NCBI GenBank assembly: GCA_963719085.1 | Contig: CAVRAL010000001.1 | Span: 204,096-268,095 of the forward strand | Source: a candidate division FCPU426 bacterium | GTDB lineage: Bacteria; Oederibacteriota; Muellerivitia; Muellerivitales; Muellerivitaceae | Direction: 5' to 3' | DNA: 64,000 nt | In this document: positions 9,627 to 25,496 of the stretch, in pieces | How the letters are laid out: every line of letters starts with the position of its first letter | How positions within the stretch are numbered: the stretch's first letter is position 1 | The notes under the pieces: model-generated | Told to the model about the DNA's origin: nothing | The model's input: only the letters and a program-made list of their open reading frames with translations | The model's database searches: none | Translations under genes and position numbers: made by a program

Positions 9627-9634
9627 GGGGTTCC

Positions 9635-10978
9635 GTGCTTCCCTGGACTTTGCGGGAGACGGCGGCTTTGGTGAATGGCCGGATCGTGGAAGGGAAAAAC
9701 GATTTAGTGGTGACGGGGGTTTGCCACGACACCCGCGCCGTTCAAAAAGGATTCCTGTTCACGGCGATTCGGGGGGCTCGGCTCGATGGGCACCGGTTTT
9801 TAGCCGAGGCGAAACGAAAAGGCGCGGTGGCGGCGCTGGTCTCGCGCTTTGTCGCGGGAGTGAAACTGCCCCAAATTTTGGCGCCGGAGACCACGGCGGC
9901 CTTGGGCGAATTAGGCCGGACCCAGCGCCTGCAATGGGGGGGGCCGGTGGTGGCGGTGACGGGCAGCGTGGGGAAAACCACGGTGAAAGATTTGACGGCC
10001 CACTTGTTGGGCGGAAAGTTTAAGACGCTCAAGACCCAGGGCAACCTGAACAATCAGTTCGGCCTGCCCTTGAGTTTGCTGAAGCTGACGGCGGCCCACG
10101 AGGCGGCCGTGGTGGAGTTGGGGATCAACCATCCGGGCGAGATGGAATGGCTGTCGGAGATCGCCCGGCCGGATACGGCGGTGGTGACGGCGATTGGGGA
10201 AGCCCATCTGGGTTTCTTTAAGGGGAAGAAGCAGCTGGCCGAGGAAAAATTGAAGATCGCCTCGCATTTGAGGCAGGGGGGGAGTGTCGTGCTAAACGCC
10301 GAGGACGACTACTTGAAAAAGAATTTGGAGAACAAAAAAAGTTTCGGCTTGCGCCAGGGCGATGTCCGGGCCTGGGGCCTCAAACTTTTGGGGCTTAAGA
10401 CCCAATTCACCCTTTGGGCGGAGGGCCGCGCCTTCCGAACCAGCCTGGCCATGCTGGGCGAGCACAATGTTCAAAACGCCTTGGCGGCCACCACGGCGGC
10501 CATGACCCTGGGGGTTTCGGCCGAGGAATGCGCGAAACGCCTCAGCACGTTTAGGGTAGAGGCCCCCATGCGGATGGAATTGAAAAAGCGCGACGGAATT
10601 CTATTTATTAATGACGCTTATAACGCCTCGCCCACCTCCATGGTGGCGGCTTTGGCGGCCTTTGAGCGGGTTCCGGCCAAGGGGTATAAGTACGCGGTTT
10701 TAGGGGACATGTTGGAATTGGGCGATTATTCCCTCGGCGCCCACGCGCAGATTTTGCGCTTGGCCCTGATGGAGCCTTTGGATGGACTCATTTTGGTCGG
10801 CGACGGGATGGGCGAAGCCTTGGATCACACGGCGATCCGGAAAAATTTCAGGATCTGGCATTTTCCCTCGGCGGGCCTGACCGGTAAATTTTTGAGGCGC
10901 AAATTGGTGAAGGGTGACGCGGTGTTGCTCAAGGGTTCCCGGGGCATGGCCCTGGAAAAGGTGTTGGACGCGTTTTAA
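9635..10978 (+). CDS. murF: UDP-N-acetylmuramoyl-tripeptide--D-alanyl-D-alanine ligase MurF
   Basis: VTGSVGKTT P-loop, with LNNQFGLPLSLL and NDAYNASP motifs. The proposed start is GTG 9635, preceded by GAGGGG (9625-9630). ORF-track start 9527 would translate the hairpin repeat (SWRLGVLAV). Confidence 0.9.
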   Translation: MLPWTLRETAALVNGRIVEGKNDLVVTGVCHDTRAVQKGFLFTAIRGARLDGHRFLAEAKRKGAVAALVSRFVAGVKLPQILAPETTAALGELGRTQRLQWGGPVVAVTGSVGKTTVKDLTAHLLGGKFKTLKTQGNLNNQFGLPLSLLKLTAAHEAAVVELGINHPGEMEWLSEIARPDTAVVTAIGEAHLGFFKGKKQLAEEKLKIASHLRQGGSVVLNAEDDYLKKNLENKKSFGLRQGDVRAWGLKLLGLKTQFTLWAEGRAFRTSLAMLGEHNVQNALAATTAAMTLGVSAEECAKRLSTFRVEAPMRMELKKRDGILFINDAYNASPTSMVAALAAFERVPAKGYKYAVLGDMLELGDYSLGAHAQILRLALMEPLDGLILVGDGMGEALDHTAIRKNFRIWHFPSAGLTGKFLRRKLVKGDAVLLKGSRGMALEKVLDAF

Positions 10979-10997
10979 AAAAAGAGAGGTAATTTTT

Positions 10998-11084
10998 ACC
11001 ACCAAGGCACCAAGACGCCAAGGAGGCTTAAGGAAAAAATCCTCAGGTTTTCAAATCTTTGATTTCTTGGTGTCTTGGTGGTGA
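10998..11084. repeat. CCAAG-word hairpin element
   Basis: Left arm ACCACCAAGGCACCAAGACGCCAAGG (10998-11023). Right arm CTTGGTGTCTTGGTGGTGA (11066-11084). It lies in the murF-mraY spacer. Confidence 0.9.
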
Positions 11085-11127
11085 GAGAGATTGAGACTTA
11101 GCTTAAGAAACGATCGGAGATCGAAAA

Positions 11128-12216
11128 GTGCTTTACCACTTGTTATATCCGCTGGCGGATAAATTTATCGGGTTCAACGTTTTTCGCTATGTGACCTTCC
11201 GCAGCGTTTACGCCGCCATCACGGCTTTTGGCTTGTGCCTGCTTTTGGGCGGCGCGGTCATCGCCCGCATGCGGGCCGCCCAGTTGGGCGAAAAGATCCG
11301 CCACGACGGGCCGGCCAGTCATTCCGCGAAGGCGGGTACGCCCACCATGGGCGGGGTTCTTATTCTTTTGACGCTTCTCATCAGCGCGCTGCTTTGGGTT
11401 CGGTGGGACTCCAAGTTTTTGTGGTTGGGGGTTTTTTCACTGGTTTGGTTCGGCCTGGTCGGGTTCGTCGATGACTACTCAAAACTCGTCGGCAAGGGAA
11501 AAAGCCGGGGAATGTCCAGCGCCACCAAGCTTGTTTTGCAGACCGTGGGCGCCGCCATCGTGGTGGCCCTTTATATGTGGGCCCTGCCCGATGATTTCGC
11601 GCTTCGCACCTCCATCACCCTGCCTTTCATCAAGGTGCCGGTGGACCTGGGGATGTTTTACCCCTTTTTCGCCGTGCTCGTCATCGTGGGCGCTTCCAAC
11701 TCGGTCAACCTCACCGACGGGCTCGATGGATTGGCCATCGGCTGTTCCACCTTTACGGCCATGGCTTTTGTGGTCATCACCTACGTGTCGGGCAATATCA
11801 AGTTCAGCGAGTATCTCAAAATCATCAGCGTGCCCGGCACGGGTGAGCTGACGGTCATGTGCGCGGCGCTGGTCGGGGCGGGGCTGGGGTTTCTTTGGTT
11901 CAACGCGCATCCGGCCCAGATCTTCATGGGCGACACGGGTTCGTTGGCCCTGGGCGGTCTTTTGGGCACCATCGCGGTGATGGTCAAGCAGGAGCTTTTG
12001 CTGGTGATCGTGGGCGGCATTTTCGTGGTGGAGGCCCTGTCGGTCATTATCCAGGTCACGTCTTATAAATTCAGCGGCAAGCGCGTCTTCAAGATGGCGC
12101 CCCTGCACCACCATTTTGAGCTGTCGGGCGTCCCGGAATCCAAACTCATCGTCCGATTTTGGATCGTGGCCATTATTTTGACATTGCTGACACTGTCGAC
12201 GCTGAAACTGCGTTAA
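11128..12216 (+). CDS. mraY: Phospho-N-acetylmuramoyl-pentapeptide transferase MraY
   Basis: 362-aa polytopic ORF. NLTDGLDGLA, MGDTGSLALGG and APLHHHFE motifs. GTG start. Confidence 0.95.
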   Translation: MLYHLLYPLADKFIGFNVFRYVTFRSVYAAITAFGLCLLLGGAVIARMRAAQLGEKIRHDGPASHSAKAGTPTMGGVLILLTLLISALLWVRWDSKFLWLGVFSLVWFGLVGFVDDYSKLVGKGKSRGMSSATKLVLQTVGAAIVVALYMWALPDDFALRTSITLPFIKVPVDLGMFYPFFAVLVIVGASNSVNLTDGLDGLAIGCSTFTAMAFVVITYVSGNIKFSEYLKIISVPGTGELTVMCAALVGAGLGFLWFNAHPAQIFMGDTGSLALGGLLGTIAVMVKQELLLVIVGGIFVVEALSVIIQVTSYKFSGKRVFKMAPLHHHFELSGVPESKLIVRFWIVAIILTLLTLSTLKLR

Positions 12217-12231
12217 GAGGAAAAAATGATG

Positions 12232-12353
12232 GAAACCAACACAAAAAGCCAACGCCAAGACGCAAAGGAAAGCGAAAGATATGTTTGAAAAACATTCTCG
12301 TTTTGCCCTTCTTGGCGTCTTGGCGTCTTGGCGTTGGTCGTTTGTGTTGGTTC
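12232..12353. repeat. CCAAG-word hairpin element (variant flanks)
   Basis: Left arm GAAACCAACACAAAAAGCCAACGCCAAGACGCAAAGG. Right arm CCTTCTTGGCGTCTTGGCGTCTTGGCGTTGGTCGTTTGTGTTGGTTC. There is a central ATGTTT..AAACAT mini-palindrome. It lies in the mraY-murD spacer. Confidence 0.85.
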
Positions 12354-12375
12354 TGACTTTGGAAGGGGTCGCGAA

Positions 12376-13752
12376 GTGATCTATGTCCATAACAAACAAG
12401 TGGCGGTGATCGGCTTGGGCCGCTCGGGACTGGCTGCGGCGCGTCTTTTGTCCGTGCGGGGCGCCCAAGTGGTGGTCCTGGACGAGAAGACGCCGGAAAA
12501 GCTAGGTTCCTGGATCGACAAGGCCAAGGACCTGCCGATCCGTTTGTCGTTGGGGAAAATGGACTTGACGCTCCTTTTGTCCTCGGATTTGATCGTCACC
12601 TCGCCCGGGGTGCCTTTTGACCATCCGGCCTTGGAACAGGCCCGGGACAAGGGAATCCGGGTGATCGGGGAGCTGGAATTGGCTTACGGTTATTGCCCGG
12701 CGCAAGTCGCCGCCATCACGGGCACCAACGGCAAAACCACCACCACGGCCCTGACGGCCGCCATGATCGCGGCTTCCGGCAAAAAAGCCATCGCTTGCGG
12801 GAATATCGGCCGGGCTTTCGCCGAGGCGGTCTTTGAGCTTTCGGCTGAGGATTGGGCGGTCTTGGAAGTTTCCAGTTTTCAATTGGAGACCATTGAGACT
12901 TTCAGGCCCAACTTGGCGGCGATTTTAAACGTCACTCCGGATCATTTGGACCGGCATGGCAGCATGCAGGCTTATGTCGAGATGAAGTCCCGGATTTTCG
13001 AGAACCAAAAACCCGAGGACGCGGCGGTCTTAAATGTGGGCGACAAATACACCCCCATCTTCGCGGGGCTTTTAAAAAGCCGGCTGCACTTCTTCGGTTT
13101 CGCCGAGAAGGCCAAGGATTTGGGCCGTCCGGGCTGTTACGTGGTGGGAAATCAATTGGAACTTTTAGGGCGTCCCTTGTTGAAGTCCGCCGATTTAAAA
13201 ATTCCGGGGCCCCATAATTTAGAAAACGCCTGCGCGGCGGCGATGCTGGCCTCGCTGGCGGGTGTTTCGGATTCGGACATCGCCCGGGCTTTGGCGGAAT
13301 TTAACGGGGTGGAGCACCGGTTGGAAAAGGCCGGCGTGATCGAGGGCGTGAGTTTTATCAACGACTCCAAGGGAACCAACGTGGATTCGGTCTTGAAGGC
13401 GCTGGAAAGTTTCGAGCGCCCGATCGTTCTTATCCTGGGCGGCCGGGACAAGGCCGGGGACTTTAGGACCTTGGCTCCTTTGGTAAAGGAAAAAGTGACC
13501 CGGGTGGTGGCCTTCGGGGAATGCAAAGCCAAGGTGGTTCAACAGCTTTCATCCACGGCCACCGTGGTGGAAGCCGAAACCTTGGAAGAGGTGGTGAATG
13601 GGGCTTTCGCGGCCAGTGAAAAGGGGGGCACGGTGCTTTTTTCCCCGGGCTGCGCCAGCTTTGACATGTTTCAGAATTACGAGGATCGGGGCCGTCAGTT
13701 TAAGGATTTGGTTTTGAAGTTGGCTTTAGCCAAGTCCACGGCTAAGGCTTAA
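12376..13752 (+). CDS. murD: UDP-N-acetylmuramoylalanine--D-glutamate ligase MurD
   Basis: N-terminal Rossmann VAVIGLGRSGLAAARLL and ITGTNGKTTT P-loop. The proposed start is GTG 12376 behind GGAAGGGG (12361-12368). ORF-track start 12328 lies inside the hairpin arm. Confidence 0.9.
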   Translation: MIYVHNKQVAVIGLGRSGLAAARLLSVRGAQVVVLDEKTPEKLGSWIDKAKDLPIRLSLGKMDLTLLLSSDLIVTSPGVPFDHPALEQARDKGIRVIGELELAYGYCPAQVAAITGTNGKTTTTALTAAMIAASGKKAIACGNIGRAFAEAVFELSAEDWAVLEVSSFQLETIETFRPNLAAILNVTPDHLDRHGSMQAYVEMKSRIFENQKPEDAAVLNVGDKYTPIFAGLLKSRLHFFGFAEKAKDLGRPGCYVVGNQLELLGRPLLKSADLKIPGPHNLENACAAAMLASLAGVSDSDIARALAEFNGVEHRLEKAGVIEGVSFINDSKGTNVDSVLKALESFERPIVLILGGRDKAGDFRTLAPLVKEKVTRVVAFGECKAKVVQQLSSTATVVEAETLEEVVNGAFAASEKGGTVLFSPGCASFDMFQNYEDRGRQFKDLVLKLALAKSTAKA

Positions 13753-13765
13753 GAAAATAAGTTTT

Positions 13766-13859
13766 ACCGCCAAGGCGCCAAGGACGCCAAGGACGGAAAA
13801 ACAAAAAGATATTTTGAAGGGGTTCGACTTTCTTGGCGAACTTGGCGTCTTGGCGGTGA
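13766..13859. repeat. CCAAG-word hairpin element
   Basis: Left arm ACCGCCAAGGCGCCAAGGACGCCAAGGA (13766-13793). Right arm TCTTGGCGAACTTGGCGTCTTGGCGGTGA (13831-13859). Each arm has three 8-9-nt words. Confidence 0.9.
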
Positions 13860-13893
13860 AATAGTTTTGGCTGAATTTTAGGTTTTAAAGGGA

Positions 13894-13982
13894 GTCATTT
13901 TTACATTCGGATTCTAAGACTACGCCTTCTACGCCACTCAACACCTACTACACCTGGCTTGGAATCCGAATGAAAGAATGAC
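13894..13982. repeat. Second, unrelated long hairpin in the murD-ftsW spacer
   Basis: GTCATTTTTACATTCGGATTC (13894-13914) pairs with GAATCCGAATGAAAGAATGAC (13962-13982) as 6+11 bp around an internal mismatch block. The loop carries short tandem words (CTACGCC twice, CACCTAC/TACACCT). Confidence 0.75.
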
Positions 13983-14175
13983 AGCCAAAAAAAGAAGTTA
14001 AAAAGTCATTCTGTAACAACCCCTGAAGCCGGGGGATTCAGGGGTTTATGAAAAGATGAATCCTATTTATTAGGGAATCATCTTTGGGCGCCATTGGAAG
14101 CTGTCCCTTCAAATGGCCATGGGGGACGACCTCCTTGTTATTGGCGGTCCGAAGTCGGTTTTATAGAAGTTATTT

Positions 14176-15336
14176 TTGGAGGCAGTTTTGAATTTTAAGA
14201 CTCGACAATTGGAATCGCCGGATTTTCTGCTTTTCCTGATCACCCTGATTCTCACGACTTCGGGACTGATCATGGTCTATAGCGCGTCGGCCATTTTGGC
14301 CCACGATGAGTACGGCAATTCTTACTATTTCTTCGGCCGCCAACTCCTTTGGATTTTGGTGGGAAGCGCCGCGGCTTGGGTCGTCAGCCGGGTCGATTTG
14401 GAAACCTTCCGGAGCCTGGCCATACCGGCCCTTTTGGTTGGGTTTTTCCTCATGGCCCTGGTTTGCGTGCCGGGCATCGGCCGCACCGTGGGCGGAGCCC
14501 AGCGCTGGTTTCGCTTGGGCCCCCTTTCGTTCCAGCCTTCCGAAGTCATGAAAATCATCCTGATCTTTTACCTGGCGGATTCCTTGGACCGGCGCCGGCA
14601 TCTTTTGGTCAACTTTTCCGGGCTCATGCCCTACCTGGTTATTTTGGGGATCACCATGGTCTTTTTGGAAAAACAACATGACTTCGGGACGGCCGTACTC
14701 CTGGCTTTGGTCACCATCCTGATGCTCTTTTTGGCCGGCATGCCCTGGGGTTATTTCGTGATCCCGGTTTCCATCCTGATCCCGGTTTTTATCTTCCTGG
14801 TGGAATCGGCCAGCTACCGCATGCGCCGCATCACGGCCTTTTTGAATCCTTGGGACGACCCGCAAGGCGCCGGATTCCAGCTGATTCAAAGCTTGATCGC
14901 GGTGGGCTCGGGCGGGCCCTTCGGCGTGGGACTTTCCAACAGCTCCCAAAAGCTTTTTTACCTGCCGGCTCCGCACACGGATTTTATCTTCGCCATCATC
15001 TGCGAAGAGCTGGGATTGGTGGGGGCGGGGGCTTTGGTGGCCTTCTTCGCTTTTTTCATCCTGCGGGGATTCAAGGTGGCCGAAACCGTAGGGGCCCGCC
15101 AGGGCGGTTTTTTCGCGTTCCTTTTGGCTTCGGGCATTACGGCTTTGATCGGCTTCCAGGCCATCGTGAACTTGGGCGTGGTGACCGGGCTTTTGCCCAC
15201 CAAGGGAATTCCCTTGCCGCTGATTTCGTACGGCGGATCGTCCATGGTCTTCACCCTGGTCTCCATCGGCATTCTTTTCAACATTTCCCGGGGGGTGAAG
15301 CTGCATTTCCCCTTCAGCGGAAAAAGGACGGTTTGA
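14176..15336 (+). CDS. ftsW: Peptidoglycan glycosyltransferase FtsW (SEDS family)
   Basis: 386-aa polytopic ORF. SEDS motifs QPSEVMKI, HTDFIFAIICEELG and LPTKGIPLPLISYGGSS. The start is uncertain: TTG 14176, or TTG 14188 behind GGAGG (14178-14182). Confidence 0.9.
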   Translation: MEAVLNFKTRQLESPDFLLFLITLILTTSGLIMVYSASAILAHDEYGNSYYFFGRQLLWILVGSAAAWVVSRVDLETFRSLAIPALLVGFFLMALVCVPGIGRTVGGAQRWFRLGPLSFQPSEVMKIILIFYLADSLDRRRHLLVNFSGLMPYLVILGITMVFLEKQHDFGTAVLLALVTILMLFLAGMPWGYFVIPVSILIPVFIFLVESASYRMRRITAFLNPWDDPQGAGFQLIQSLIAVGSGGPFGVGLSNSSQKLFYLPAPHTDFIFAIICEELGLVGAGALVAFFAFFILRGFKVAETVGARQGGFFAFLLASGITALIGFQAIVNLGVVTGLLPTKGIPLPLISYGGSSMVFTLVSIGILFNISRGVKLHFPFSGKRTV

Positions 15337-15340
15337 GGAT

Positions 15341-16468
15341 ATGACGGATATGGACCGCGGCGAAAAAGTGAAGGTCATCATCACCGGCGGCGGCACGGGC
15401 GGCCACGTGTTTCCGGGCATCGCTTTGGCGCAAGAATTGGGACGCCGTTCCTCGGTGAAAGTTCTTTATGTGGGCAAGGTGACCGGGCCTGAAAGCAAAT
15501 GGGTCACGGACCGGGGATTGCCCTTTGAGGGGATCAACGCCAGCGGTTTTCCGCGGGGCTTCAGTTTAAAACTTTTCACCTTTTGGATCGACCTATTGAG
15601 GGGATTTTCCCAGGCCTCTGGAATTTTGAAAAAATTCCGGCCCCAAGTGGTTTTTTCAACCGGCGGCTACGTGTCGGTGCCGGTGTCGGTGGCGGCGGCG
15701 TTGAAGGGGATTCCGGTGTTGTTGTTCGAGCCCAACGTGACACCGGGCTTGGCGGCCCGGGTTTTGTCCTTTTTCTCAAGCCGGGTTTTCACGGGATTTA
15801 AAAAAACCTCGGAAACTTTCGCCAGGTCCAAATCAGTTTGGAGCGGGATCCCGGTGCGCCGGGAGATTTTAGAGGCCCGAAAAGAGGAAGCCCTGAAAAG
15901 TTTCGGTCTGGACGGCGAAAAGATCACCCTGCTTCTTTTGGGGGGGAGCCAGGGGGCCCATGCCTTGAACCAAATGATGAGCGGCGCGATCCAGGTATTG
16001 AACGACGGCGCCGATCCCTTGCAGGTTTTGATGATGACGGGATTTTCCGATTATCAATGGGTGCTCGATGAGACGGGCAAATGCGCTTTGAAGGTGGTCT
16101 TGCGGCCCTTTTTCAGCGACATCCAACAGGCTTACGCGGCCGCGGATTTGGTCGTGGCCCGCTCCGGCGCCATTACTTGCGCGGAGCTTTTATCCCGGGG
16201 CCTGCCGTCCCTGTTGATCCCTTATCCCCACGCCTCGGGCCACCAGGAAGCCAACGCGCGGGCGCTGGAAGAAGCCGGCGCGGCGGAAGTGTTGCTCGAA
16301 AAAGATTTGCAAAAGGGTTTTTTGGCCGACCGGATCCACGATTTGGTCGCTCATCCGGAACGTTTAAAGCGCATGGGCCTCAAGGCCCGTGAAATTTACA
16401 AAGAGGACGCCTCGGCCTTGATCGCCGAGAACCTGTTGGAATTCGCGTCGCAAAGGAAAAGCGCATGA
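15341..16468 (+). CDS. murG: UDP-N-acetylglucosamine--N-acetylmuramyl-(pentapeptide) pyrophosphoryl-undecaprenol GlcNAc transferase MurG
   Basis: ITGGGTGGHVFPG N-terminal motif and C-terminal HQEANA motif. The alternative start is ATG 15350. Confidence 0.93.
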   Translation: MTDMDRGEKVKVIITGGGTGGHVFPGIALAQELGRRSSVKVLYVGKVTGPESKWVTDRGLPFEGINASGFPRGFSLKLFTFWIDLLRGFSQASGILKKFRPQVVFSTGGYVSVPVSVAAALKGIPVLLFEPNVTPGLAARVLSFFSSRVFTGFKKTSETFARSKSVWSGIPVRREILEARKEEALKSFGLDGEKITLLLLGGSQGAHALNQMMSGAIQVLNDGADPLQVLMMTGFSDYQWVLDETGKCALKVVLRPFFSDIQQAYAAADLVVARSGAITCAELLSRGLPSLLIPYPHASGHQEANARALEEAGAAEVLLEKDLQKGFLADRIHDLVAHPERLKRMGLKAREIYKEDASALIAENLLEFASQRKSA

Positions 16469-17865
16469 GCCTGTCCCAGTTTTTAACCCAGCCCCTGGGG
16501 TCCGTGAAAAGGGTCCATTTTATCGGCATCGGCGGCGCCGGCATGAGCGGCATCGCGGCGGTGCTCTTGAGCCTGAAATACCAAGTAACGGGATCGGACT
16601 TGAAACCCAGTGAAGTGACGGACCGCTTGATCGCCATGGGCGCCAAGATCGCCTTTGGCCACAAGGCCGCCAACGCGGTGGGTTCGGACGTGGTGGTTTA
16701 TTCGGCGGCGGTTCCCTTGGACAATCCGGAGATCACCGAAGCCCAAAAGCGGCAAATCCCGGTGATCCAACGCACCGAAATGCTGGCCGAACTGATGCGG
16801 CTCAAATACGGAATCGCGGTCTCGGGCACCCACGGTAAAACCACGACCACTTCCATGATCGGGCTGGCTTTGACCGAGGGAAAACTGGACCCGACCTTGG
16901 TGATTGGGGGCCAAGTGGACGCTTTCAAGTCCAACGCCAAACTGGGAAAAAGCGATTATCTGGTGGCCGAGGCCTGCGAGGCTTTCGGCGAGTTTTTCCT
17001 GCTCTCGCCCATGATTTCCATCATCACCAATATCGACGACGATCACTTGGACTATTACGGTTCCATCGAGAAGGTGCGGGATTCTTTCGTGACCTTCGCC
17101 AACAAAGTTCCTTTTTATGGCTGCGTGATTTTGGGGATCGATGACAAGCAGATCCAGTCCATGGTCGGGCAAATTAAGCGCCGGGTAGTGACCTATGGGC
17201 TTCAAAAACCGGCCCAGGTGATGGCCCGCAAGATCAAATACGAAAAAGCCGGGTCGATCTTTGAGGTGGCCCGGGACGGAAAAAAGCTCGGCGTGGTCCA
17301 CTTGGGCGTGCCGGGCCGGTTCAACATTCAAAACGCTTTGGCCGCCATTTCGGTGGCGCTGGAACTCAAAGTTCCCTTCAAGGCGATCGCGGCGGGGTTG
17401 GCCCGCTTCCATGGGGCCCAGCGCCGCTTTGAGATCAAGGGAACCTTCAAGGGCGCCACGGTGGTCGATGATTACGCCCACCATCCCACAGCGGTCTTGG
17501 AAACCTTGAAAGCGGCCAAGCATTTCGCCGGAAGCAAAAAGTTGGTGGTGGTGTTTCAACCCCATCTTTTTTCCCGGACCCAATTGCTCCGGGACAAATT
17601 CGGCAAGGCCTTTGGCGACGCGGATGAGGTGATCATCACCGCCGTTTATCCTTCCCGGGAAAAGCCGATCCCGGGCGTGACGGGCAAAACTTTGGTGGAG
17701 GCGATCCGGGAAAACGGCCACAAGTCGGTGGCGTCTTTTGAGGATAAGACGGCCCTTTTGGAATATTTAAAAGGCCATCTGACCGGCAAACATGTGCTTT
17801 TGACCATGGGCGCGGGGGATATCTGGAAACTGGGTTCGGACCTGGTCCAGAAACATAAAGGTTAG
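16465..17865 (+). CDS. murC: UDP-N-acetylmuramate--L-alanine ligase MurC
   Basis: FIGIGGAGMSGIA and VSGTHGKTTTTSM motifs. The ATG overlaps the murG stop (ATGA). Confidence 0.95.
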   Translation: MSLSQFLTQPLGSVKRVHFIGIGGAGMSGIAAVLLSLKYQVTGSDLKPSEVTDRLIAMGAKIAFGHKAANAVGSDVVVYSAAVPLDNPEITEAQKRQIPVIQRTEMLAELMRLKYGIAVSGTHGKTTTTSMIGLALTEGKLDPTLVIGGQVDAFKSNAKLGKSDYLVAEACEAFGEFFLLSPMISIITNIDDDHLDYYGSIEKVRDSFVTFANKVPFYGCVILGIDDKQIQSMVGQIKRRVVTYGLQKPAQVMARKIKYEKAGSIFEVARDGKKLGVVHLGVPGRFNIQNALAAISVALELKVPFKAIAAGLARFHGAQRRFEIKGTFKGATVVDDYAHHPTAVLETLKAAKHFAGSKKLVVVFQPHLFSRTQLLRDKFGKAFGDADEVIITAVYPSREKPIPGVTGKTLVEAIRENGHKSVASFEDKTALLEYLKGHLTGKHVLLTMGAGDIWKLGSDLVQKHKG

Positions 17866-17874
17866 GAAAAAATG

Positions 17875-17958
17875 ACCACCAAGGCACCAAGACACCAAGG
17901 AAGGCGGAAAGAAAATTCGATTTGTTTTTTTCTTGGTGTCTTGGCGTCTTGGTGGTGA
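17875..17958. repeat. CCAAG-word hairpin element
   Basis: Left arm ACCACCAAGGCACCAAGACACCAAGGA (17875-17901). Right arm TCTTGGTGTCTTGGCGTCTTGGTGGTGA (17931-17958). It lies in the murC-murB spacer. Confidence 0.9.
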
Positions 17959-17972
17959 GGAACTTTTTCGTC

Positions 17973-18920
17973 GTGGATTTTGGGGAACTGAAGAAACGGC
18001 TTAAGGGCCGGGTGGAATTGGGCGCCTCAATGGCGCTAGCGACCAGCTACCACATCGGGGGCGCCGCGGGGGCCTTGGTGGAGCCGCAAGACGTGGAAGA
18101 TTTAAAGACTTTGATGGGCTGGCTTGGGGAAACCCAGACGCCCTACCTCATTTTGGGCGGGGGAAGCAACCTGCTTTTCGCCGATGAGGGCTTTCAAGGC
18201 GTGGTGATCCGCCTGGGACGCGGGTTCCAAGGCGTGCAGGTGGAAGGGGATCGGGTTCGGGTGAAAGCCGCCACCAAATTGGTGACGGTTCTCAATCGGG
18301 CCCGGGAAGAAAACCTGGGGGGCGTCGAGTTTTTCGCCGGCATCCCGGGAACCATCGGCGGGGCGGTGTCCGGGAACGCCGGGGCTAAAAAGGCCTGGAT
18401 CGGGCCCACGGTGGAGGAGCTTTTGATCGTGACGCCTGAGGGCGAGGCGAAGGTTTTAAAGAAGGCGGACTACGTTTACGGATACCGCGCCTCCTCGTTG
18501 AAGATGAGCGGAAATGTTTTGGTGGAGGCGGTCTTGAGGCTCAAAAAAGAGCCCCAGGCGGAGATTGAAAAAAAAGTGAGGGACTATTTCAAGGTGCGCC
18601 GGGGGAAACAGCCCCGGGTGGAGCCCAACGCGGGAAGCGTTTTTAAGAACCCCGAGGGAAACTTCGCGGGGCGTTTAACCGAGTCGGTGGGACTCAAAGG
18701 CTTCAAGGTGGGCGGGGCTGAGGTGAGCCAAATTCACGCCAACTTTATCGTGAACGACGGAAAGGCCAAGGCCCGCGATGTGGTGGCGGTGATGCGGGAG
18801 ATTCAGAAACGGGTATGGGCTGAGTACCAGATCAAACTGGAGCCTGAAATCCTTCCCTTGGGGGATTGGGATTGGGCCGAGATTCAGGATGTGTGGTGGA
18901 ATTTGGAAAAGAAGTTTTGA
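17973..18920 (+). CDS. murB: UDP-N-acetylenolpyruvoylglucosamine reductase MurB
   Basis: FAD-binding GGGSNLLF motif plus the GSVFKNP and ANFIVN motifs. The proposed start is GTG 17973. ORF-track start 17922 translates the hairpin arm (SWCLGVLVV). Confidence 0.9.
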   Translation: MDFGELKKRLKGRVELGASMALATSYHIGGAAGALVEPQDVEDLKTLMGWLGETQTPYLILGGGSNLLFADEGFQGVVIRLGRGFQGVQVEGDRVRVKAATKLVTVLNRAREENLGGVEFFAGIPGTIGGAVSGNAGAKKAWIGPTVEELLIVTPEGEAKVLKKADYVYGYRASSLKMSGNVLVEAVLRLKKEPQAEIEKKVRDYFKVRRGKQPRVEPNAGSVFKNPEGNFAGRLTESVGLKGFKVGGAEVSQIHANFIVNDGKAKARDVVAVMREIQKRVWAEYQIKLEPEILPLGDWDWAEIQDVWWNLEKKF

Positions 18921-18983
18921 ATTTTAAGTTCTAAGTTTTGAGTTCTTAAACTTAAAACTAAAAACTGAGAACTCAAAACTAGG
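18921..18983. repeat. AT-rich word-repeat hairpin (AAGTTYT / AAAACTN words)
   Basis: Perfect 13-bp stem AGTTTTGAGTTCT (18934-18946) with AGAACTCAAAACT (18968-18980) and a 21-nt loop. The arms and loop are built of about 7-nt words (AAGTTCT AAGTTTT GAGTTCT on one side, AAAACTA AAAACTG AGAACTC on the other). It fills the murB-ddl spacer. Confidence 0.85.
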
Positions 18984-18994
18984 GCAGGAAACGA

Positions 18995-19975
18995 ATGAGT
19001 ACAAGGAAAGCAATGAAGCCGAAAACCGGAGCGGGAAAATTGAAAGTGGGTGTCCTGATGGGCGGTTGGAGCTCGGAACGCGCGGTGTCTTTGGTCTCGG
19101 GCCAAAAGGCGGCGGAGGCTTTGAAAAAGGCGGGCTTTTCCGTGGCGATTTTGGATTTGACCTCCACCGACCGGAACGAAAAGAAACTCGCGGCGAGGTT
19201 GAAAAAGGCCCGCTTGGACGCGGCTTTGATCGCCTTGCATGGCGGTTACGGGGAGAACGGCGGCATCCAGTCCTTGCTCGAACGTTTGAGGATTCCCTAT
19301 ACGGGATCGGGTCCCTTGGCTTGCGGATTGGCCATGCAAAAGGCCTGCGCCAAGCTGGTGCTGGAAGCCAACGCGGTGCCGACGGCGCCTTGGCAGGCGT
19401 TGGAACGAAAAACCTCGAATGACAATCGGGGCAAAGAAGTGATCTTGAAATTGCCGCTGGTGGTCAAGCCCGCGGACGGGGGATCGGCGATCGGGGTGAC
19501 GATCGCGCGCAAAAAAGAACAATTGAGCCCGGCCTTGAAAACGGCCTTTAAAACCAGCCAATGGGCGGTGGTGGAGAAATTCATCGAGGGAGTGGAAGTG
19601 ACGGCGGGAGTTTTGGAAGACAAGGCGCTTCCTTTAATCGAGATAGTGCCCGCGAACGATTTTTACGATTACGACGCCAAATACACGCCGGGCCGCTCCA
19701 AACACGTGATTCCGGCCCGGTTGTCCAAGGCGGTGACGAAAAAAGTCCAAGCCGCGGCGTTAAAGGCGGGCCGGGTATTGGGATGCCGTGATTTTTACCG
19801 GGTGGACTTGATCGTGCCGAAAAAAGGCGGCCCGCAAGTTTTGGAAGTGAACACGGTTCCGGGCATGACGGGAACCAGTCTTTTTCCGGAGGCCGCGGCG
19901 AAGGCGGGCACGCCTTTCCCGAAGCTTTTGAAGCGGTTGGTGCTTTTGGCGCTGAGCCGGAAAGGCCGTGATTAA
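18995..19975 (+). CDS. ddl: D-alanine--D-alanine ligase
   Basis: VGVLMGGWSSERAVSLVSG N-terminus, ATP-grasp core and C-terminal EVNTVPGMT motif. Confidence 0.93.
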   Translation: MSTRKAMKPKTGAGKLKVGVLMGGWSSERAVSLVSGQKAAEALKKAGFSVAILDLTSTDRNEKKLAARLKKARLDAALIALHGGYGENGGIQSLLERLRIPYTGSGPLACGLAMQKACAKLVLEANAVPTAPWQALERKTSNDNRGKEVILKLPLVVKPADGGSAIGVTIARKKEQLSPALKTAFKTSQWAVVEKFIEGVEVTAGVLEDKALPLIEIVPANDFYDYDAKYTPGRSKHVIPARLSKAVTKKVQAAALKAGRVLGCRDFYRVDLIVPKKGGPQVLEVNTVPGMTGTSLFPEAAAKAGTPFPKLLKRLVLLALSRKGRD

Positions 19976-21039
19976 TGTATTACCGGGGGTCCCGAGTTTC
20001 TTTAAGCGAAAGCCGGGATCATTTTCATCCCAGCGTGGGGCCGAAGACCTGGCGGGACCGGGCGGCTTCCCGCGCGCAGGAAAAGCCGAAGGAAAAGATG
20101 TTTCGGCTGTCGTTGAAGCTGGTCCGCAAGCCAAAGCGCCAAGCCCCCCTGTTTTCGGGGGCTCGGGCAACGGAAGTACAAGAACAAGTCGTTCATGGAT
20201 TCTACCGGCCCAGCCGCTTGACGAGGGCTTCCAACGGCGGCGCCGCCGCGGTGGATGGCCGGGATGGTCTGCGGCCTGGTTTCGCGGTTCCGCCTTTTGT
20301 GGGGAAGCTGGGGATGCCGATTTTAAAAGCGGGATTGGTGTTGGGGTTGGTGGGGGCCTTGGTGTGGTCCAAGGTGAAGACCTCGGATTTGCTGCAGCAG
20401 ATGTCGGGCTTGACGCTCTCCAAAATCAGCGTGGAGGGCGACCATTATTTGACGGAGGATGAAGTGATCGCCGCGGCCAAGGCGCCCCTGGGAGTCAATA
20501 TGTTCAAGCTCGATCTGGGCGATATCTCCGCCAAGGTGGGAGCCTTGAGCTGGGTGAAAAGGGTGTTCGTCGAGAGGCGCCTGCCCAAGTCCCTGCTCAT
20601 TTCCGTGGACGAGCGCAAACCCCTGGCCCTGTTGGACCATGGGGATCTTTACGCCGCGGATGCGGACGGCCGGATTTTATCCCCTTCGCAAGCCCTCTCC
20701 GGCGTGGACCTGCCGGTGGTGTCGGGCCTTGATTTTACCCCGGACGCCGTGGGGACCACGCTGGAGGCGGCCAGCTTGAAGCCGGCGCTGGATTTTTTGG
20801 AATTCCTGAAACACCAGGACGGGTCCTTGGCCCAGGACGTTTCGGAAGTGAACCTGGCGGAGCCCGGGTGCTTGAAGGTGACTTTTATCGACGGCGTGGT
20901 GGCCCGGTTTAACCCCTTGGTGACCGAGGACGAGCTGAGGCATATGGCGCTGGTGTTGGGCGATTTGAATTTAAAAGGGAAAAAGGCGGCCAGCCTGGAC
21001 TTTCGTTACAAAGACGAAGTGCTGGTGAGGACGCGATGA
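19975..21039 (+). CDS. ftsQ: Cell division protein FtsQ (POTRA domain)
   Basis: TM segment ILKAGLVLGLVGALVW followed by POTRA (ISVEGDHYLTEDEVIAAAKAPLGVNMFKLDL) and the FtsQ beta domain. The start is uncertain. ATG 19975 overlaps the ddl stop by 1 nt. ATG 20098, behind GAAGGAAAAG, is an alternative. Confidence 0.8.
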   Translation: MYYRGSRVSLSESRDHFHPSVGPKTWRDRAASRAQEKPKEKMFRLSLKLVRKPKRQAPLFSGARATEVQEQVVHGFYRPSRLTRASNGGAAAVDGRDGLRPGFAVPPFVGKLGMPILKAGLVLGLVGALVWSKVKTSDLLQQMSGLTLSKISVEGDHYLTEDEVIAAAKAPLGVNMFKLDLGDISAKVGALSWVKRVFVERRLPKSLLISVDERKPLALLDHGDLYAADADGRILSPSQALSGVDLPVVSGLDFTPDAVGTTLEAASLKPALDFLEFLKHQDGSLAQDVSEVNLAEPGCLKVTFIDGVVARFNPLVTEDELRHMALVLGDLNLKGKKAASLDFRYKDEVLVRTR

Positions 21040-21075
21040 ACATGAAAAGAGGAACCATGGATAAAAACAATATTA

Positions 21076-21172
21076 ACCACCAAGACACCAAGACACCAAG
21101 TTTAAAAGGTAACGATGGAACTCAAAAGCAAAAGTTTTTGACTTCCTTGGCGCCTTGGCGTCTTGGTGGTGA
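21076..21172. repeat. CCAAG-word hairpin element
   Basis: Left arm ACCACCAAGACACCAAGACACCAAG (21076-21100). Right arm CTTGGCGCCTTGGCGTCTTGGTGGTGA (21146-21172). It lies in the ftsQ-ftsA spacer. Confidence 0.9.
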
Positions 21173-21204
21173 AAAACATGTTTTAAAACAAGGGGGTGAA
21201 TGAA

Positions 21205-22470
21205 ATGGCTAAGGAAATAAAACAAGACGTGGTGGTGGGTTTGGACCTGGGGACGACCAAGGTTTGCACCATCATCGGGGAGCTGGATGACGAGGGCCAG
21301 GTCCACATCATCGGCGTGGGCACCACCCAGTCGACGGGTTTGAAAAAAGGCTCGGTGGTCAACATCGAGCAAACCATCAACTCGATTAAAAAATCCATCC
21401 AGGACGCGGAGCGCATGGCCGGGGTGGAAGTGACCTCGGTTTACGCCGGGGTGGCCGGAGGGCACATCAAGGGCCTCAACAGCCGGGGCGTCATCGCAGT
21501 GTCCCGCCGGGACAAGGAGATCACCGAGGAAGACAGGGAGCGCGTCATTGAGGCCGCGCAGGCCATCGCCATCCCGCTGGACCGGGAAATCATCCACGTG
21601 ATTCCCCAGGAATATATCGTGGACGATCAGGACGGCATCAAGAATCCCGTGGGCATGTCGGGGGTTCGATTGGAGGCCGAGGTCCATGTGGTGACCGGCG
21701 CGGTGACCAGCGTGCAAAACATCGTGCGCAGCGTGGAGCGGGCGGGGGTTTCCGTCAACGACATCGTGCTGCAGCCCCTGGCTTCCGCGGAGGCCATCCT
21801 TTCGGCCGACGAGAAAGAGCTGGGCGTGGTGCTCATTGATATCGGCGGAGGGACCACGGATATCGCGGTTTTCATCAACGGATCACTTTGGCACACGGGC
21901 ATCATCACCTTAGGGGGGGCCTTGGTCACCAGCGACGTGGCCGTGGGTTTGAGGACGCCCAACACCGAGGCGGAAAGCATCAAGACGCATTTTGGGAGCG
22001 CCTATACCGCCATGGTGAAAGAAGAGGAAGAAATCACCGTGCCGGGCGTGGGCGGGCGCCCGGACCGGCGCATGCCGCGGCGGGTATTGTCTGAAATTAT
22101 TGAGGCCCGCATGGAGGAAATTTTTGAGCTGGTTTCCGCCGAGCTTAAGAAACACGGGTTTGAGGACCGCATCCCCGCGGGGGCGGTTATCACGGGCGGG
22201 TCTTCCTTAATGGAAGGCACGGCCGAGTTGGCGGAAAAAATCCTCCAGCTTCCGGTGCGCATTGGGTCGCCCAAACGGGTGGGCGGGTTAACGGATGTGG
22301 TTTCCAACCCCATGTATTCCACCGCGGTGGGATTGGTTTTGATGGGACTTCGGTCCCACTCGGGGCCTTCGTCGGCGGCCGGGAAGAAAAGCGCGGGCGC
22401 CAAGCAAGGCGGCGGAATGCTGCAGGACATCCTGGGCCGGATGAAGGGTTGGTTCGGAGATTCGATTTAA
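21205..22470 (+). CDS. ftsA: Cell division protein FtsA
   Basis: Actin-fold motifs VVGLDLGTTKVC and VLIDIGGGTTDIAVF. ATG 21205 lies behind AGGGGG (21191-21196). The ORF-track GTG 21196 is 3 codons upstream. Confidence 0.93.
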   Translation: MAKEIKQDVVVGLDLGTTKVCTIIGELDDEGQVHIIGVGTTQSTGLKKGSVVNIEQTINSIKKSIQDAERMAGVEVTSVYAGVAGGHIKGLNSRGVIAVSRRDKEITEEDRERVIEAAQAIAIPLDREIIHVIPQEYIVDDQDGIKNPVGMSGVRLEAEVHVVTGAVTSVQNIVRSVERAGVSVNDIVLQPLASAEAILSADEKELGVVLIDIGGGTTDIAVFINGSLWHTGIITLGGALVTSDVAVGLRTPNTEAESIKTHFGSAYTAMVKEEEEITVPGVGGRPDRRMPRRVLSEIIEARMEEIFELVSAELKKHGFEDRIPAGAVITGGSSLMEGTAELAEKILQLPVRIGSPKRVGGLTDVVSNPMYSTAVGLVLMGLRSHSGPSSAAGKKSAGAKQGGGMLQDILGRMKGWFGDSI

Positions 22471-22480
22471 CGGCGGATTT

Positions 22481-22563
22481 ACCGCCAAGACGCCAAGTGC
22501 GCCAAGAAAGGCAAAGATTAAGAGATTTTGAAGTCCTTGGCGAACTTGGCGTCTTGGCGGTGA
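22481..22563. repeat. CCAAG-word hairpin element
   Basis: Left arm ACCGCCAAGACGCCAAGTGCGCCAAGA (22481-22507). Right arm CTTGGCGAACTTGGCGTCTTGGCGGTGA (22536-22563), with one mismatch. It lies in the ftsA-ftsZ spacer. Confidence 0.9.
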
Positions 22564-22747
22564 AAAGGTTTTGAATTTGTAGTGGGTTGGACTTTGGAAA
22601 GGTGGTGATTGTTTGGCACTGGAACTAAAGGGTTGAGGGGCGCGGGGGCGCGAGTCTTCGCCGCCCAAAGGGCGTGAGGCTTCACGTCCCTGCGCTTAAA
22701 AAATGGGGTTTAAAGTTTCACCAAAAAAATCAAGATGAGGGGGATTT

Positions 22748-23908
22748 ATGATCGAGTTCGCGGAAGACGATGTGACGCAGTATCTGGCCCATTTGAAGGT
22801 GATCGGGGTCGGCGGCGGCGGTTGCAACGCCATCAACAAAATGATTGAGGCCGGGATTGAGGGGGTGGAATGCATCTCCGCCAATACGGACTACAAATCG
22901 CTTCGCCGCAGCAAAGCGGCTAAAAAAATCCAACTGGGAAAGTCCTTGACCAAGGGCTTGGGCTCGGGCGGAAATCCCACGACCGGCAAAGAAGCGGCCA
23001 CCGAGTCCATCAACGAAATCCAGCAGGCGCTGGAAGGCGCGGACATGGTGGTGGTGGCCTGCGGGATGGGCGGCGGCACGGGAACGGGCGCGGCCCCGAT
23101 CGTGGCGGAGGTTTCCAAAAAGATGGGAATCCTGACGGTGGGCGTGGTGAGCCGTCCCTTTGAGTTCGAGGGACCGGTGCGCAAGGCCCAGGCCGAGGAC
23201 GGACTCAAGGCCATGATGCCCCACGTGGACGCCATTGTGGTGATCCCCAACGAACGCATCAACATGGTTTGCGAGCAGGACATCGATTTGTCCTCCGCTT
23301 TCAGCCGCGTGGATGACGTTCTGGTGCAGGCCATCCAGGGCATTTCCATGGTCATCCACTCGGAAGGGATCATCAACCGCGACTTCGCCGACGTGAAGCG
23401 CATCCTGACCGCCAAAGGCAAGGTCTTGATGGGAACCGGTTACGGGACCGGCGAGGACCGGGCCTTGAAAGCGGTCCAAAAAGCCGTCAACAGCCCCTTG
23501 CTGGAGGATGTGGATATCGCTGGCGCCACCGCGGTTTTGGTGCAGGTGACCGCGGGCGCGAACTTCAGCTTGAACGAGTTCAACCAGATCAACGGGTTCC
23601 TGCAGAAGGCGGCCCGGCCTGGCGCGGAAATCATCCCCGGCATCGTGAAGGACGAGAATCTTCGCGACGGCCTGCGGGTGACCATCATCGCCACCGGTTT
23701 CGACCAAGTGAAATCGGCCGACACCGCCACGGTGATCGACCTGAAGAACTTCGTCAATCCGAACTTCCAAACCTCCAAGGGGGACACCGCGGCTTCGATC
23801 GGCGCGGAGGATTTCGAGGGGGATATGGGCATCAAGTTGACCGAAGGGCAGTACGAGATTCCGGCTTACCTGCGCCGCCGTTTGGCCAGCAAGCCGTTTA
23901 ACAACTAA
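22748..23908 (+). CDS. ftsZ: Cell division GTPase FtsZ
   Basis: Tubulin signature GGGTGTGAAP, VIGVGGGGCNAINKM, and a C-terminal conserved peptide (IPAYLRRR). Confidence 0.97.
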   Translation: MIEFAEDDVTQYLAHLKVIGVGGGGCNAINKMIEAGIEGVECISANTDYKSLRRSKAAKKIQLGKSLTKGLGSGGNPTTGKEAATESINEIQQALEGADMVVVACGMGGGTGTGAAPIVAEVSKKMGILTVGVVSRPFEFEGPVRKAQAEDGLKAMMPHVDAIVVIPNERINMVCEQDIDLSSAFSRVDDVLVQAIQGISMVIHSEGIINRDFADVKRILTAKGKVLMGTGYGTGEDRALKAVQKAVNSPLLEDVDIAGATAVLVQVTAGANFSLNEFNQINGFLQKAARPGAEIIPGIVKDENLRDGLRVTIIATGFDQVKSADTATVIDLKNFVNPNFQTSKGDTAASIGAEDFEGDMGIKLTEGQYEIPAYLRRRLASKPFNN

Positions 23909-23926
23909 GGCGGTAAACAGCGGCAT

Positions 23927-24016
23927 TCACCACAGAGTTACACAGAGTGAACAGAGTAAGGATCAAACCCTATTTGGGATTTGGTTTTACTCCGAGTAAC
24001 TCGGTGTAACTCCGTG
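23927..24016. repeat. Word-repeat hairpin, 10-nt word family (CACAGAGTKA)
   Basis: The left arm is three tandem 10-mers, CACAGAGTTA CACAGAGTGA ACAGAGTAAG (23931-23960). The right arm is three inverted 10-mers, TACTCCGAG TAACTCGGTG TAACTCCGTG (23988-24016). The loop is about 27 nt. It starts 19 nt after the ftsZ stop. Confidence 0.85.
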
Positions 24017-24041
24017 TTTCAAAGATTTTGACTGTCTTTTT

Positions 24042-24175
24042 GGCCCGGCGCTCGTCGGGCCGATGAGACGGAAGCACGGCGCCCGGACCCTTTGGTGCTC
24101 CGGGAACACCCCCTACGCTTTTCGACACCTGGGGTGCCTCCCCGTGCTTCCGTCCCATCGCTGGGGATTTTTTTA
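24042..24175 (+). promoter_or_regulatory. Structured leader or complex terminator candidate: a 19-bp long-range helix enclosing two smaller helices, then a T7 run
   Basis: P1 is CGATGAGACGGAAGCACGG (24061-24079) with CCGTGCTTCCGTCCCATCG (24142-24160), 18/19 paired. Inner helices are CCCGGA (24082-24087)/TCCGGG (24099-24104) and CACCCC (24107-24112)/GGGGTG (24131-24136). A 5' hairpin is GGCCCG/CGGGCC (24042-24061). TTTTTTT lies at 24168-24174, directly before the RBS and TTG of the deacetylase gene. Confidence 0.45.
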
Positions 24176-24185
24176 GAGGATCCCC

Positions 24186-25496
24186 TTGGGAAAGGAAACC
24201 GATTTGCGTCGATTGGTTGTTTTTTTTATTTTTGCCCTAACCGCGTTAGGGGCCGCGGTGGTTTATTCGGCCGCCGCGTCCTCCGAAGGGATGATGCCAA
24301 CGCCTTCGGCCGCGCCTCCGGTGGACACGACCTTCAATGTTTTGTGCTACCACCGGTTCATCTATCACCCGGTGAAGACCACTTCGGATTACTTGATGCC
24401 GGTGGACAATTTCCGCTGGCAGATGCAGTACCTGAAAGACAACGGTTTCACGCCCATCAGCGTTGATCAACTTTTGGATTTTTGGGACAAGGGCTCGCCG
24501 CTTCCCCCCAAACCGGTTCTTTTGACCTTTGACGACGGATTTAAAAGTGTTTACGAGAAGGCTTTTCCGGTGTTGAAAGAATTCCACTATCCGGGAATTC
24601 TTTTCCTGATTTCCAGCTTCGTGCAAAACGGGGACGCCTGGGGGCTCCACCACAAGGACAATAGCGGGCGCATGGCGCTCAATGACGCCGAGATTGAGGA
24701 AATGGAAAAGGCGGGGCTGGTGGTGGAATCCCACACGGTCAGCCATTTGAATATGGGATTGGAAGCTGAAAAAAGAAGTCCGGCCGATTTTAAGGCGTTG
24801 GTCCAAAGGGAATTGGGATATCCCGTCGATTTTTTCGCCGGCAAGTTCGGCCAAAAGCCCGAGCTTTTAGCTTATCCCTACGGCGTTTATAACGACGAGG
24901 TCCTCAAAGAGACGGCGGCGCTTTACCGCCTGGCCTTCACGGTGAACGCGGGGCCCAATGACCGCACGGTTGATCCTTATAAGTTACGCCGGTTTTTGAT
25001 CCTGGGCGATACCAGCCAAAAGGAATTCGCGTCGATGTTTGGGGATAAGGTTTTGCATATCGCCCACGCGGGTCCGGGGGATGGCCAGGTGATTTGGTCG
25101 CGTAAGCCGCTGATTTCCATTCAAATCCTGGACGACGTGGACCCCAAGTCGGTGGCGCTGAATCTTGAGACCAAACGCTTAAAAACTACCTATGACCCGC
25201 GATTGCGTTTGGTGACCTACCGGGTGGAACAACCCATCCGCATGGGCGGGCACCAATTGACCTTGAGGGCCAAAGATATGGCCGGGAATACCCGGGTTTT
25301 CAGTTGGTATTTCCGCGTGAAGCACCGCTTGGAACCGGCCCTGTCCCCGACGCCAATCACCCCAATTCCGGCCGCGTCGCCCACGCCCCTTATGAGGACT
25401 TCGTCCCCCATGGGGACTTCGTCCACTGCGAGGACTTCGTCCCCAATGGGGACTTCGCCACCAGCCATGATGAAGGTGGGCCATGACTCCCAATAA
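24186..25496 (+). CDS. Polysaccharide (probably peptidoglycan/exopolysaccharide) deacetylase, NodB-homology family, secreted or membrane-anchored
   Basis: N-terminal hydrophobic anchor, then the NodB motif VLLTFDDGFKSVYEKAFPVLKEF and a later ESHTVSH His motif. The C-terminal tail is Ser/Pro-rich and tandemly repeated. TTG start. Confidence 0.8.
   Translation: MGKETDLRRLVVFFIFALTALGAAVVYSAAASSEGMMPTPSAAPPVDTTFNVLCYHRFIYHPVKTTSDYLMPVDNFRWQMQYLKDNGFTPISVDQLLDFWDKGSPLPPKPVLLTFDDGFKSVYEKAFPVLKEFHYPGILFLISSFVQNGDAWGLHHKDNSGRMALNDAEIEEMEKAGLVVESHTVSHLNMGLEAEKRSPADFKALVQRELGYPVDFFAGKFGQKPELLAYPYGVYNDEVLKETAALYRLAFTVNAGPNDRTVDPYKLRRFLILGDTSQKEFASMFGDKVLHIAHAGPGDGQVIWSRKPLISIQILDDVDPKSVALNLETKRLKTTYDPRLRLVTYRVEQPIRMGGHQLTLRAKDMAGNTRVFSWYFRVKHRLEPALSPTPITPIPAASPTPLMRTSSPMGTSSTARTSSPMGTSPPAMMKVGHDSQ

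Follow-up and report, generated by a model that had tools for sequence, protein, structure and literature searches.

Immediately downstream of ftsZ stands a hairpin whose arms are built of short tandem words, and the locus raises the question of whether this structure is a control signal of a cell-division gene, a palindrome of purely local origin or one copy of something more widely dispersed. In the window (the whole 64-kb stretch of DNA analysed) it occupies positions 23926–24016, and it is probably a member, partly decayed and without the gene, of a palindromic nuclease-cassette family, lodged in the ftsZ 3' UTR.

The hairpin downstream of ftsZ and its relatives in the window

The host gene upstream of the element is the ftsZ open reading frame (22748–23908, + strand; Pfam Tubulin E = 8e-48, FtsZ_C E = 6e-27), for which homologues were found. 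Its stop codon is followed by a 17-nt spacer (GGCGGTAAACAGCGGCA, 23909–23925, + strand) that, in the alignment with relatives, is missing where the site is empty and is shared only in part by other copies; in metagenome X3, the match of the other copies to the window begins only at 23921–23924. The element opens 18 nt past the stop with the terminal clamp TTCACC (23926–23931; family consensus TTNACC), a sequence common to the CCAAG elements of the window, the Bacteroides copies and the metagenomic GxxExxY cassettes described below. The left arm (23931–23960) consists of the words CACAGAGTTA CACAGAGTGA ACAGAGTAAG, with a core spacing of 10 nt and then 9 nt. Its cores CACAGAG, CACAGAG and (A)ACAGAG (23931–23957) start at 23931, 23941 and 23950 and are separated by spacers of 3 nt and 2 nt; the third is degraded, its first C being gone. 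On the other side of a 31-nt inner segment (23958–23988), the right arm (23989–24016, + strand) reads ACTCCGAGTA ACTCGGTGTA ACTCCGTG and carries the inverted cores CTCCGAG, CTCGGTG and CTCCGTG, the last two starting at 24000 and 24010 and the degraded first one at 23990. Comparison with canonical copies places the right clamp at 24017–24023, where TTTCAAA is found instead of GGTGAA (family norm GGTNAA), within GTGTTTCA. The right clamp would thus have been lost or have decayed, and this is read as decay of a gene-less copy.

A closer look at the fold showed that 23926–24016 forms an 86-nt near-continuous hairpin, with a 34-bp stem and an apical loop of 5 nt (23971–23975). For the 132-nt region the folding z-score is -4.5 (+ strand) and -6.3 (- strand), and none of 200 shuffles folds as well. 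This copy is more stable on the antisense strand (-42.9 kcal/mol versus -38.9 kcal/mol on the sense strand), and the sense-strand mismatches of the stem are A·C and A·G. No Rfam match was obtained at E up to 1 on either strand of 23000–25000. Intrinsic termination was considered and rejected, as no + strand site with a GC-rich stem, a 3–8-nt loop and an immediate U-run was scored at 23926–24025; the nearest terminator-like site on this strand lies at 24152–24168 and is followed by T7.

The word family of the window was described with a motif model that takes at least two tandem C-R-C-N-R-A-K cores at a period of 7–12 nt, a loop of up to 150 nt and at least two inverted cores. Ten elements of the window, including the one at the ftsZ site, match this model, and all ten start with TT[TCA]ACC; 100 dinucleotide-preserving shuffles gave a mean of 0.0 matches (maximum 0). 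The CACAGAG word of the ftsZ site, the C[AG]CCAAG word of the so-called CCAAG elements and the CGC[AG]GAT word of the GATGAACGC elements are all variants of the one heptamer, and spacers of 1, 2 and 3 nt between its copies result in periods of 8, 9 and 10 nt. At 49.8 kb and 62.4 kb, the cores of the GATGAACGC elements agree with the pattern on inspection, but their right arms have degraded too far for these elements to be among the ten model matches. The core is not matched by the AT-rich hairpin at 18921. Tandem Repeats Finder and direct reading showed that nearly all dcw-operon junctions at which the genes do not overlap have a hairpin of the tandem-word plan, as do other places in the window. 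The ftsZ-site word itself occurs in one copy only within the 64 kb.

Most of what the earlier note had reported about the architecture is upheld by these results. The arms, the fold z-scores and the ten model matches against none confirm a hairpin with three tandem words of about 10 nt per arm after ftsZ, and its grouping with the CCAAG and GATGAACGC hairpins holds. The tandem-word layout is commoner than in dinucleotide-shuffled sequence, at ten elements against none in 100 shuffles. The loop of about 27 nt stands as far as an inner segment does separate the arms, but this segment is mostly paired with itself and only the 5 nt at its apex form a loop. The statement that the hairpins share a construction rule and not a sequence is not supported, given that three of the four word families of the window are one heptamer, C-R-C-N-R-A-K, with a TTNACC clamp.

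Two further observations concern the other hairpins of this region. Seven of the nine CCAAG-type hairpins (9545–22565, 41415–41535 and 51560–51672) are more stable as sense (+) RNA, by 3–13 kcal/mol, mainly through G·U pairs formed by left words that end in G opposite right words that start with T; this could reflect selection at the RNA level or a mutational bias. Hairpins with tandem-word arms outside the C-R-C-N-R-A-K core also recur at the dcw junctions of this lineage, at 18915–18985 of the window and in related loci (L003 1297–1424, L005 2833–3001 and 4161–4300, L129 5825–6001 and L131 5630–5760), with words that include the AT-rich AAGTTYT and AATTTTGA as well as GGACGNN, GTTGACAG and CAGGGGATA.

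The heptamer in other genomes and around a nuclease gene

A scan for CACAGAGTNACACAGAGT across 185,579 species genomes matched at least 120 stretches, against a chance estimate of about 70 for the whole collection. Among the 120 matches listed, 80 belong to Bacteroidota and the rest to at least ten other phyla, and 58 have an inverted partner arm no more than 200 nt away. Many canonical copies read TTCACC-ACAGAGTCAC-ACAGAGTTCC-ACAGAGT, followed by a loop, the exact complement and GGTGAA. Within one such element no more than one of the 27 arm positions differs between the arms, even though the spacers vary from element to element, and copies with identical arms enclose unrelated inner segments of 15–62 nt. 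Most Bacteroides copies are gene-less. The exact word of the ftsZ site therefore recurs across phyla and is not idiosyncratic; the word families of the window that share the heptamer differ mainly in the length of the spacer. A 21-nt identity between the left arms of the ftsZ site and of locus L102 was considered as a sign of direct descent and discarded, since it is expected by chance with words this short in a sample selected by the query.

Some of these copies are nested or rearranged. In L031 (4970–5130) and L125 (6400–6540) alike, the loop of one word hairpin contains or adjoins a second, complete one. In a Bacteroides genome (L098, 3650–3780) words of the GATGAACGC type lie within the inner segment of a CACAGAGT element, so that word classes found together in the window also co-occur in Bacteroidota. 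In four Bacteroidales MAGs (L007, L008, L028 and L030) the arrays face the opposite way, with ACTCTGTG-type words first and CACAGAG-type words after them, and a clamp-like TTACA...TGTAA is located at the inner ends of the arrays; these elements may constitute a distinct subfamily.

The complete form of the element came to light at L102, where arms made of the ftsZ-site word surround a 420-nt 'loop' that contains a 123-aa open reading frame matching GxxExxY (TIGR04256, E = 6e-45) and PDDEXK_3 (PF13366, E = 9e-43). Comparison with this locus shows that the inner segment of the ftsZ-site element (23958–23988) takes the place of the nuclease gene in complete cassettes. A phmmer search of all open reading frames found seven GxxExxY genes among the 120 loci listed, all seven with word arms beside them, and none either between the arms of the ftsZ-site element or among the open reading frames of the 64-kb window. 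A metagenome scan with an alignment of GxxExxY proteins then returned 599 relatives, from which 80 loci were fetched and 70 genes were usable. Their flanks are almost always inverted arrays with the clamp and C-R-C-N-R-A-K cores; under a strict test, 45 of the 70 genes had tandem-core arms on both sides, whereas not one of the 87 controls, segments displaced by 1 kb, did. The association between nuclease and arms is statistical. Other candidate cargo genes between long-range inverted arms were rejected, as they mostly turned out to be ordinary host genes (alanine racemase, RraA-like) flanked by two separate hairpins. The arms of the family consist of a TTNACC ... GGTNAA clamp and three or four copies of the heptamer placed 1–4 nt apart; complete members carry between them a predicted PD-(D/E)XK nuclease gene of about 120 aa (GxxExxY, TIGR04256 / PF13366), and the gene-less ones keep a short inner segment.

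The nuclease looks functional. Residues E27 (of the GxxExxY motif), D67, K79, Q91 and Y95 do not vary among 60 homologues, E77 hardly varies, and the AlphaFold model reaches a pLDDT of 96. The solved folds nearest to this model are Cas4 SSO0001, lambda-type exonucleases and the AddAB nuclease domain, all of them weak matches (E at least 0.013), and the sequence gave no match to solved structures. PF13366 was listed with 'Unknown' function in a superfamily survey of 2012 (PMC3424549).

Position-by-position comparison of the two arms in 56 cassettes revealed that the mismatches are not evenly distributed. Arm-to-arm identity reaches 92% at core position 2 (R) and 91% at core position 5 (R), drops to 69% in the spacers and is lowest at core position 4 (N), with 56%, a value close to that which we estimate from base composition alone. 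No wobble bias was seen at N in these cassettes (G/A 14 versus A/G 11, with many transversions). In the ftsZ-site element the two outer word pairs differ at N only (A23934 opposite C24013 and A23944 opposite G24003), and these mismatches are therefore a trait of the family and not random decay. True decay has occurred too, at the first base of the third word and at the missing right clamp. The view of the earlier note that the mismatches show divergence of the copies is misleading for the two outer word pairs. Since the core positions are fixed whatever the pairing at N, sequence-specific recognition of the heptamer array is favoured over pure structure.

The word class, defined by core positions 2, 5 and 7, is homogeneous inside each element. 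Mapped on a tree of 75 nucleases it requires 17 changes, whereas shuffled assignments needed 38.5 on average and never fewer than 33. Such tracking fits cognate recognition, and a gene and arms copied together would give it equally. The idea of a family of cognate factors, also put forward in the earlier note, agrees with arms that flank GxxExxY genes and with word classes that cluster on the nuclease tree (17 versus 38.5 changes).

Full-text literature yielded no published description of the cassettes or of the word, only incidental mentions, among them a B. fragilis PCR primer that overlaps a word copy. It is new that the apparently different word is the same degenerate heptamer, and that words of this class are common in Bacteroidota and border GxxExxY genes. 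New as well are the systematic lack of pairing at N, the agreement of word class with the nuclease tree and the turnover of the ftsZ site between close relatives.

History of the ftsZ 3' site and origin of the element

The order ftsA, ftsZ, polysaccharide deacetylase, amidase is kept in the relatives, and the site after ftsZ varies among them. Nothing follows the ftsZ stop in the lineages whose FtsZ is 98% (L127), 94% (L001 and L002), 86% (L128), 84% (L129) and 83% (L130) identical to that of the window. A clamp-bearing hairpin of CACGAAG / CACAAAG words stands there in L003 and L004 (94%), a GGACG-word hairpin in L005 and L006 (87%) and a CACAAAG-word hairpin in L131 (75%). Taking the window together with nine relative lineages, three relatives carry hairpins of other words and six carry none. 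Among the lineages compared, the locus is best explained as a nuclease-cassette shell present in the ftsZ 3' UTR of the window lineage only. Between invariant flanks, the window is about 124 nt longer than L127 and L001 (alignment A1), and comparison of the filled and the empty junction in this alignment shows no target-site duplication. In such a pattern a gain in the window lineage and losses in the relatives look alike. The L003-type element also occurs in the ftsA-ftsZ spacer of that genome. L003 (4161–4290) and L004 (4161–4281) encode identical FtsZ proteins and differ there by a single 9-nt word (ACACGAAGT), present twice in the former and once in the latter, in the left arm only. This is direct evidence of slippage in one arm, and it speaks against a mechanism that must always make both arms from a template.

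At the ftsZ locus, a strain in metagenome X3 has this element too, with 104 of 108 nt identical (96%), and two other contigs of this metagenome have the same left arm in different contexts. In the best-matching metagenomes X1, X2 and X4, the ftsZ locus alone matches at 80% or above. The Logan contigs of X1 and X2, the two soil metagenomes with the best match, are in both cases interrupted within the first left-arm word (window 23929–23938), consistent with assembly trouble at a repeat; it is a warning that elements of this kind fragment metagenome assemblies at gene ends.

Close to the element, within 24040–24175, lies a block of about 100 nt (GATGAGACGGAAGCACGG ... CCGTGCTTCCGTCCCATCG, about 24061–24160) that is almost invariant where FtsZ is 94–98% identical, with variable DNA on either side of it among those relatives. 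It is preceded by a small GC hairpin whose stem sequence changes between relatives while the pairing is kept, it is followed by a terminator-like stem and T7 (24152–24174), it gave no Rfam match, and it is missing from the lineage with 87% identity (L005). The block has the appearance of a structured leader, or of a small RNA, that is conserved ahead of the polysaccharide deacetylase gene.

One rival view takes the hairpin for an RNA element which the host has selected in its dcw operon, as a REP-like stabiliser, an RNase III or RNase E site or a partial terminator that sets the ratio between ftsZ and neighbouring transcripts. Such a role would suit the location in a transcribed 3' UTR 18 nt past the stop codon, the presence of a hairpin of this family at nearly every non-overlapping dcw junction, the better folding of the sense RNA in seven of the nine CCAAG elements and, by analogy, the cutting of hairpin-flanked 23S rRNA intervening sequences by RNase III (PMC4990558). 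However, neither the closest relatives (FtsZ 98% and 94%) nor several others have the element at this site, despite the invariant synteny and the neighbouring 100-nt block. Moreover, the ftsZ-site copy folds better as antisense, it carries A·C and A·G mismatches on the sense strand and no + strand terminator-like site was scored at it, which makes a host function of this kind unlikely. Chance is the weakest account. That the word has one copy only in the window might suggest a locus-specific palindrome that arose by local duplication and has no relatives, and this is refuted by the recurrence of the word, with its clamp and layout, in at least 120 stretches from other genomes, and by the ten model elements against none in shuffles; with the fold z-scores of -4.5 and -6.3 added, its probability is practically nil.

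Two alternatives accept the family and differ in what moves it. The hairpins might spread and persist without a dedicated nuclease, by slippage and template switching or through a host DNA-binding protein, the GxxExxY genes merely lodging inside them. The gain or loss of words in one arm between near-identical strains (two in L003, one in L004) points in this direction, as do arms that are near-identical within an element although spacers differ between elements, the excess of gene-less over gene-bearing copies (seven genes among the 120 loci listed) and the existence of hairpins with non-core words (18921; L005; L129). Against it, conservation of the core heptamer and of the clamp spans more than ten phyla and does not depend on pairing, with N unpaired and the flanking positions fixed, the arms are tightly associated with the nuclease (45/70 versus 0/87) and the word class follows the nuclease tree, so that we hold this explanation to be improbable. 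A classical MITE, moved by a conventional transposase whose gene lies in another part of the genome, would account for terminal inverted repeats, a dispersed multi-copy distribution, presence/absence polymorphism and nested copies (L031), but it would be expected neither to lack a target-site duplication at the filled versus the empty junction nor to have unrelated inner segments of 15–62 nt between identical arms, which is unlike the copying of whole MITEs. The only gene repeatedly found inside the arms, furthermore, is a PD-(D/E)XK nuclease and not a transposase, and a MITE origin is accordingly very unlikely.

The reading we prefer is the cassette copy. Because its closest relatives have no element at the site, the ftsZ-site element is probably a recent selfish insertion and not a control signal of ftsZ. 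We infer that the nuclease drives the spread of the family and reads the heptamers. The copy would have arrived, or have last been replaced, at the DNA level in the window lineage as a selfish element, the heptamer arrays serving as putative recognition sites for a cassette nuclease that acts in trans, and the number of words would afterwards drift by slippage. The element is presumably transcribed within the ftsZ 3' UTR and may fold there into the stem of about 34 bp, which would be at most an incidental barrier to 3'-exonucleases or a site for a double-strand RNase, and not a required regulator. On this reading, the hairpin at the 3' end of ftsZ is not to be taken for a conserved regulator of cell division.

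A broader proposal, which we put forward tentatively and hold to be possible, with somewhat more doubt than confidence, is that these elements represent an undescribed cross-phylum class of mobile 'hairpin cassettes'. In this scenario each GxxExxY protein, as a minimal PD-(D/E)XK nuclease of RecB/Cas4-like type, would read its own variant of the heptamer, perhaps on an extruded hairpin in which N is deliberately unpaired, to copy or maintain its cassette, and gene-less shells would build up at the 3' ends of genes and at operon junctions. If so, these shells would supply Bacteroides and many soil phyla with structured 3' UTRs and with RNA stems inside operons, in large numbers and without annotation, and thousands of intergenic hairpins of gut Bacteroides and of uncultured bacteria from soil and peat would be remnants or satellites of a single family with a nuclease gene. 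The proposal would also suggest a function for the 'GxxExxY protein' / PDDEXK_3 family, which is very common, and alert annotators to arms that imitate N-terminal extensions and regulatory hairpins; a protein with a heptamer array and natural specificity variants would offer a tractable test system.

Comparison with known systems

Several known systems share features with the cassettes. Integron attC sites are likewise imperfect palindromes at the 3' ends of genes, with a variable inner part and conserved unpaired bases that are not decay. They differ in lacking tandem-word arms and in requiring an integron integrase and a cassette array, neither of which was seen at the ftsZ locus, and the dcw genes are not cassettes; the resemblance is an analogy only. 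The short tandemly repeated repetitive (STRR) heptamers of cyanobacteria form intergenic tandem arrays that can fold into inverted hairpin sets and vary between strains, as the cassettes do; Elhai and colleagues reportedly described in 2008 such heptamers and hairpins that host small dispersed repeats. Their heptamer sequences are unlike those of the cassettes, and they are not known to carry a clamp or a nuclease cargo.

The intervening sequences with an open reading frame in the 23S rRNA of Coxiella burnetii and Leptospira (S23p / PF05635) also enclose a small gene in a stem of inverted flanks; the family of this gene is multi-copy in some genomes, versions without it exist and the stem is cut by RNase III (PMC4990558). 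They are located in helices 25 and 45 of the rRNA, whereas the cassettes are located in mRNA 3' UTRs or intergenic DNA, and their cargo belongs to another family.

REP/BIME/REPIN sequences with their RAYT genes (IS200/IS605-type Y1) resemble the cassettes in being short extragenic palindromes dispersed in many copies, in which a small gene of nuclease/transposase type is flanked by its own palindromes, gene-less copies are far commoner, and the position is often between operon genes, where an RNA hairpin can affect mRNA decay. The differences lie in the arms and in the cargo. A REP is a single palindrome of about 20 nt with a GTAG head, while the arms of the cassettes are tandem heptamer arrays; the ftsZ-site element, with arms of this kind, carries no GTAG head. 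RAYT is a Y1 HUH transposase, of which there is one per REP family, and the nuclease of the cassettes is a PD-(D/E)XK protein (RecB/Cas4/lambda-exo-like) whose gene is multi-copy, each copy in its own hairpin. The cassettes are further set apart from REP sequences by the core position N, which is systematically unpaired.
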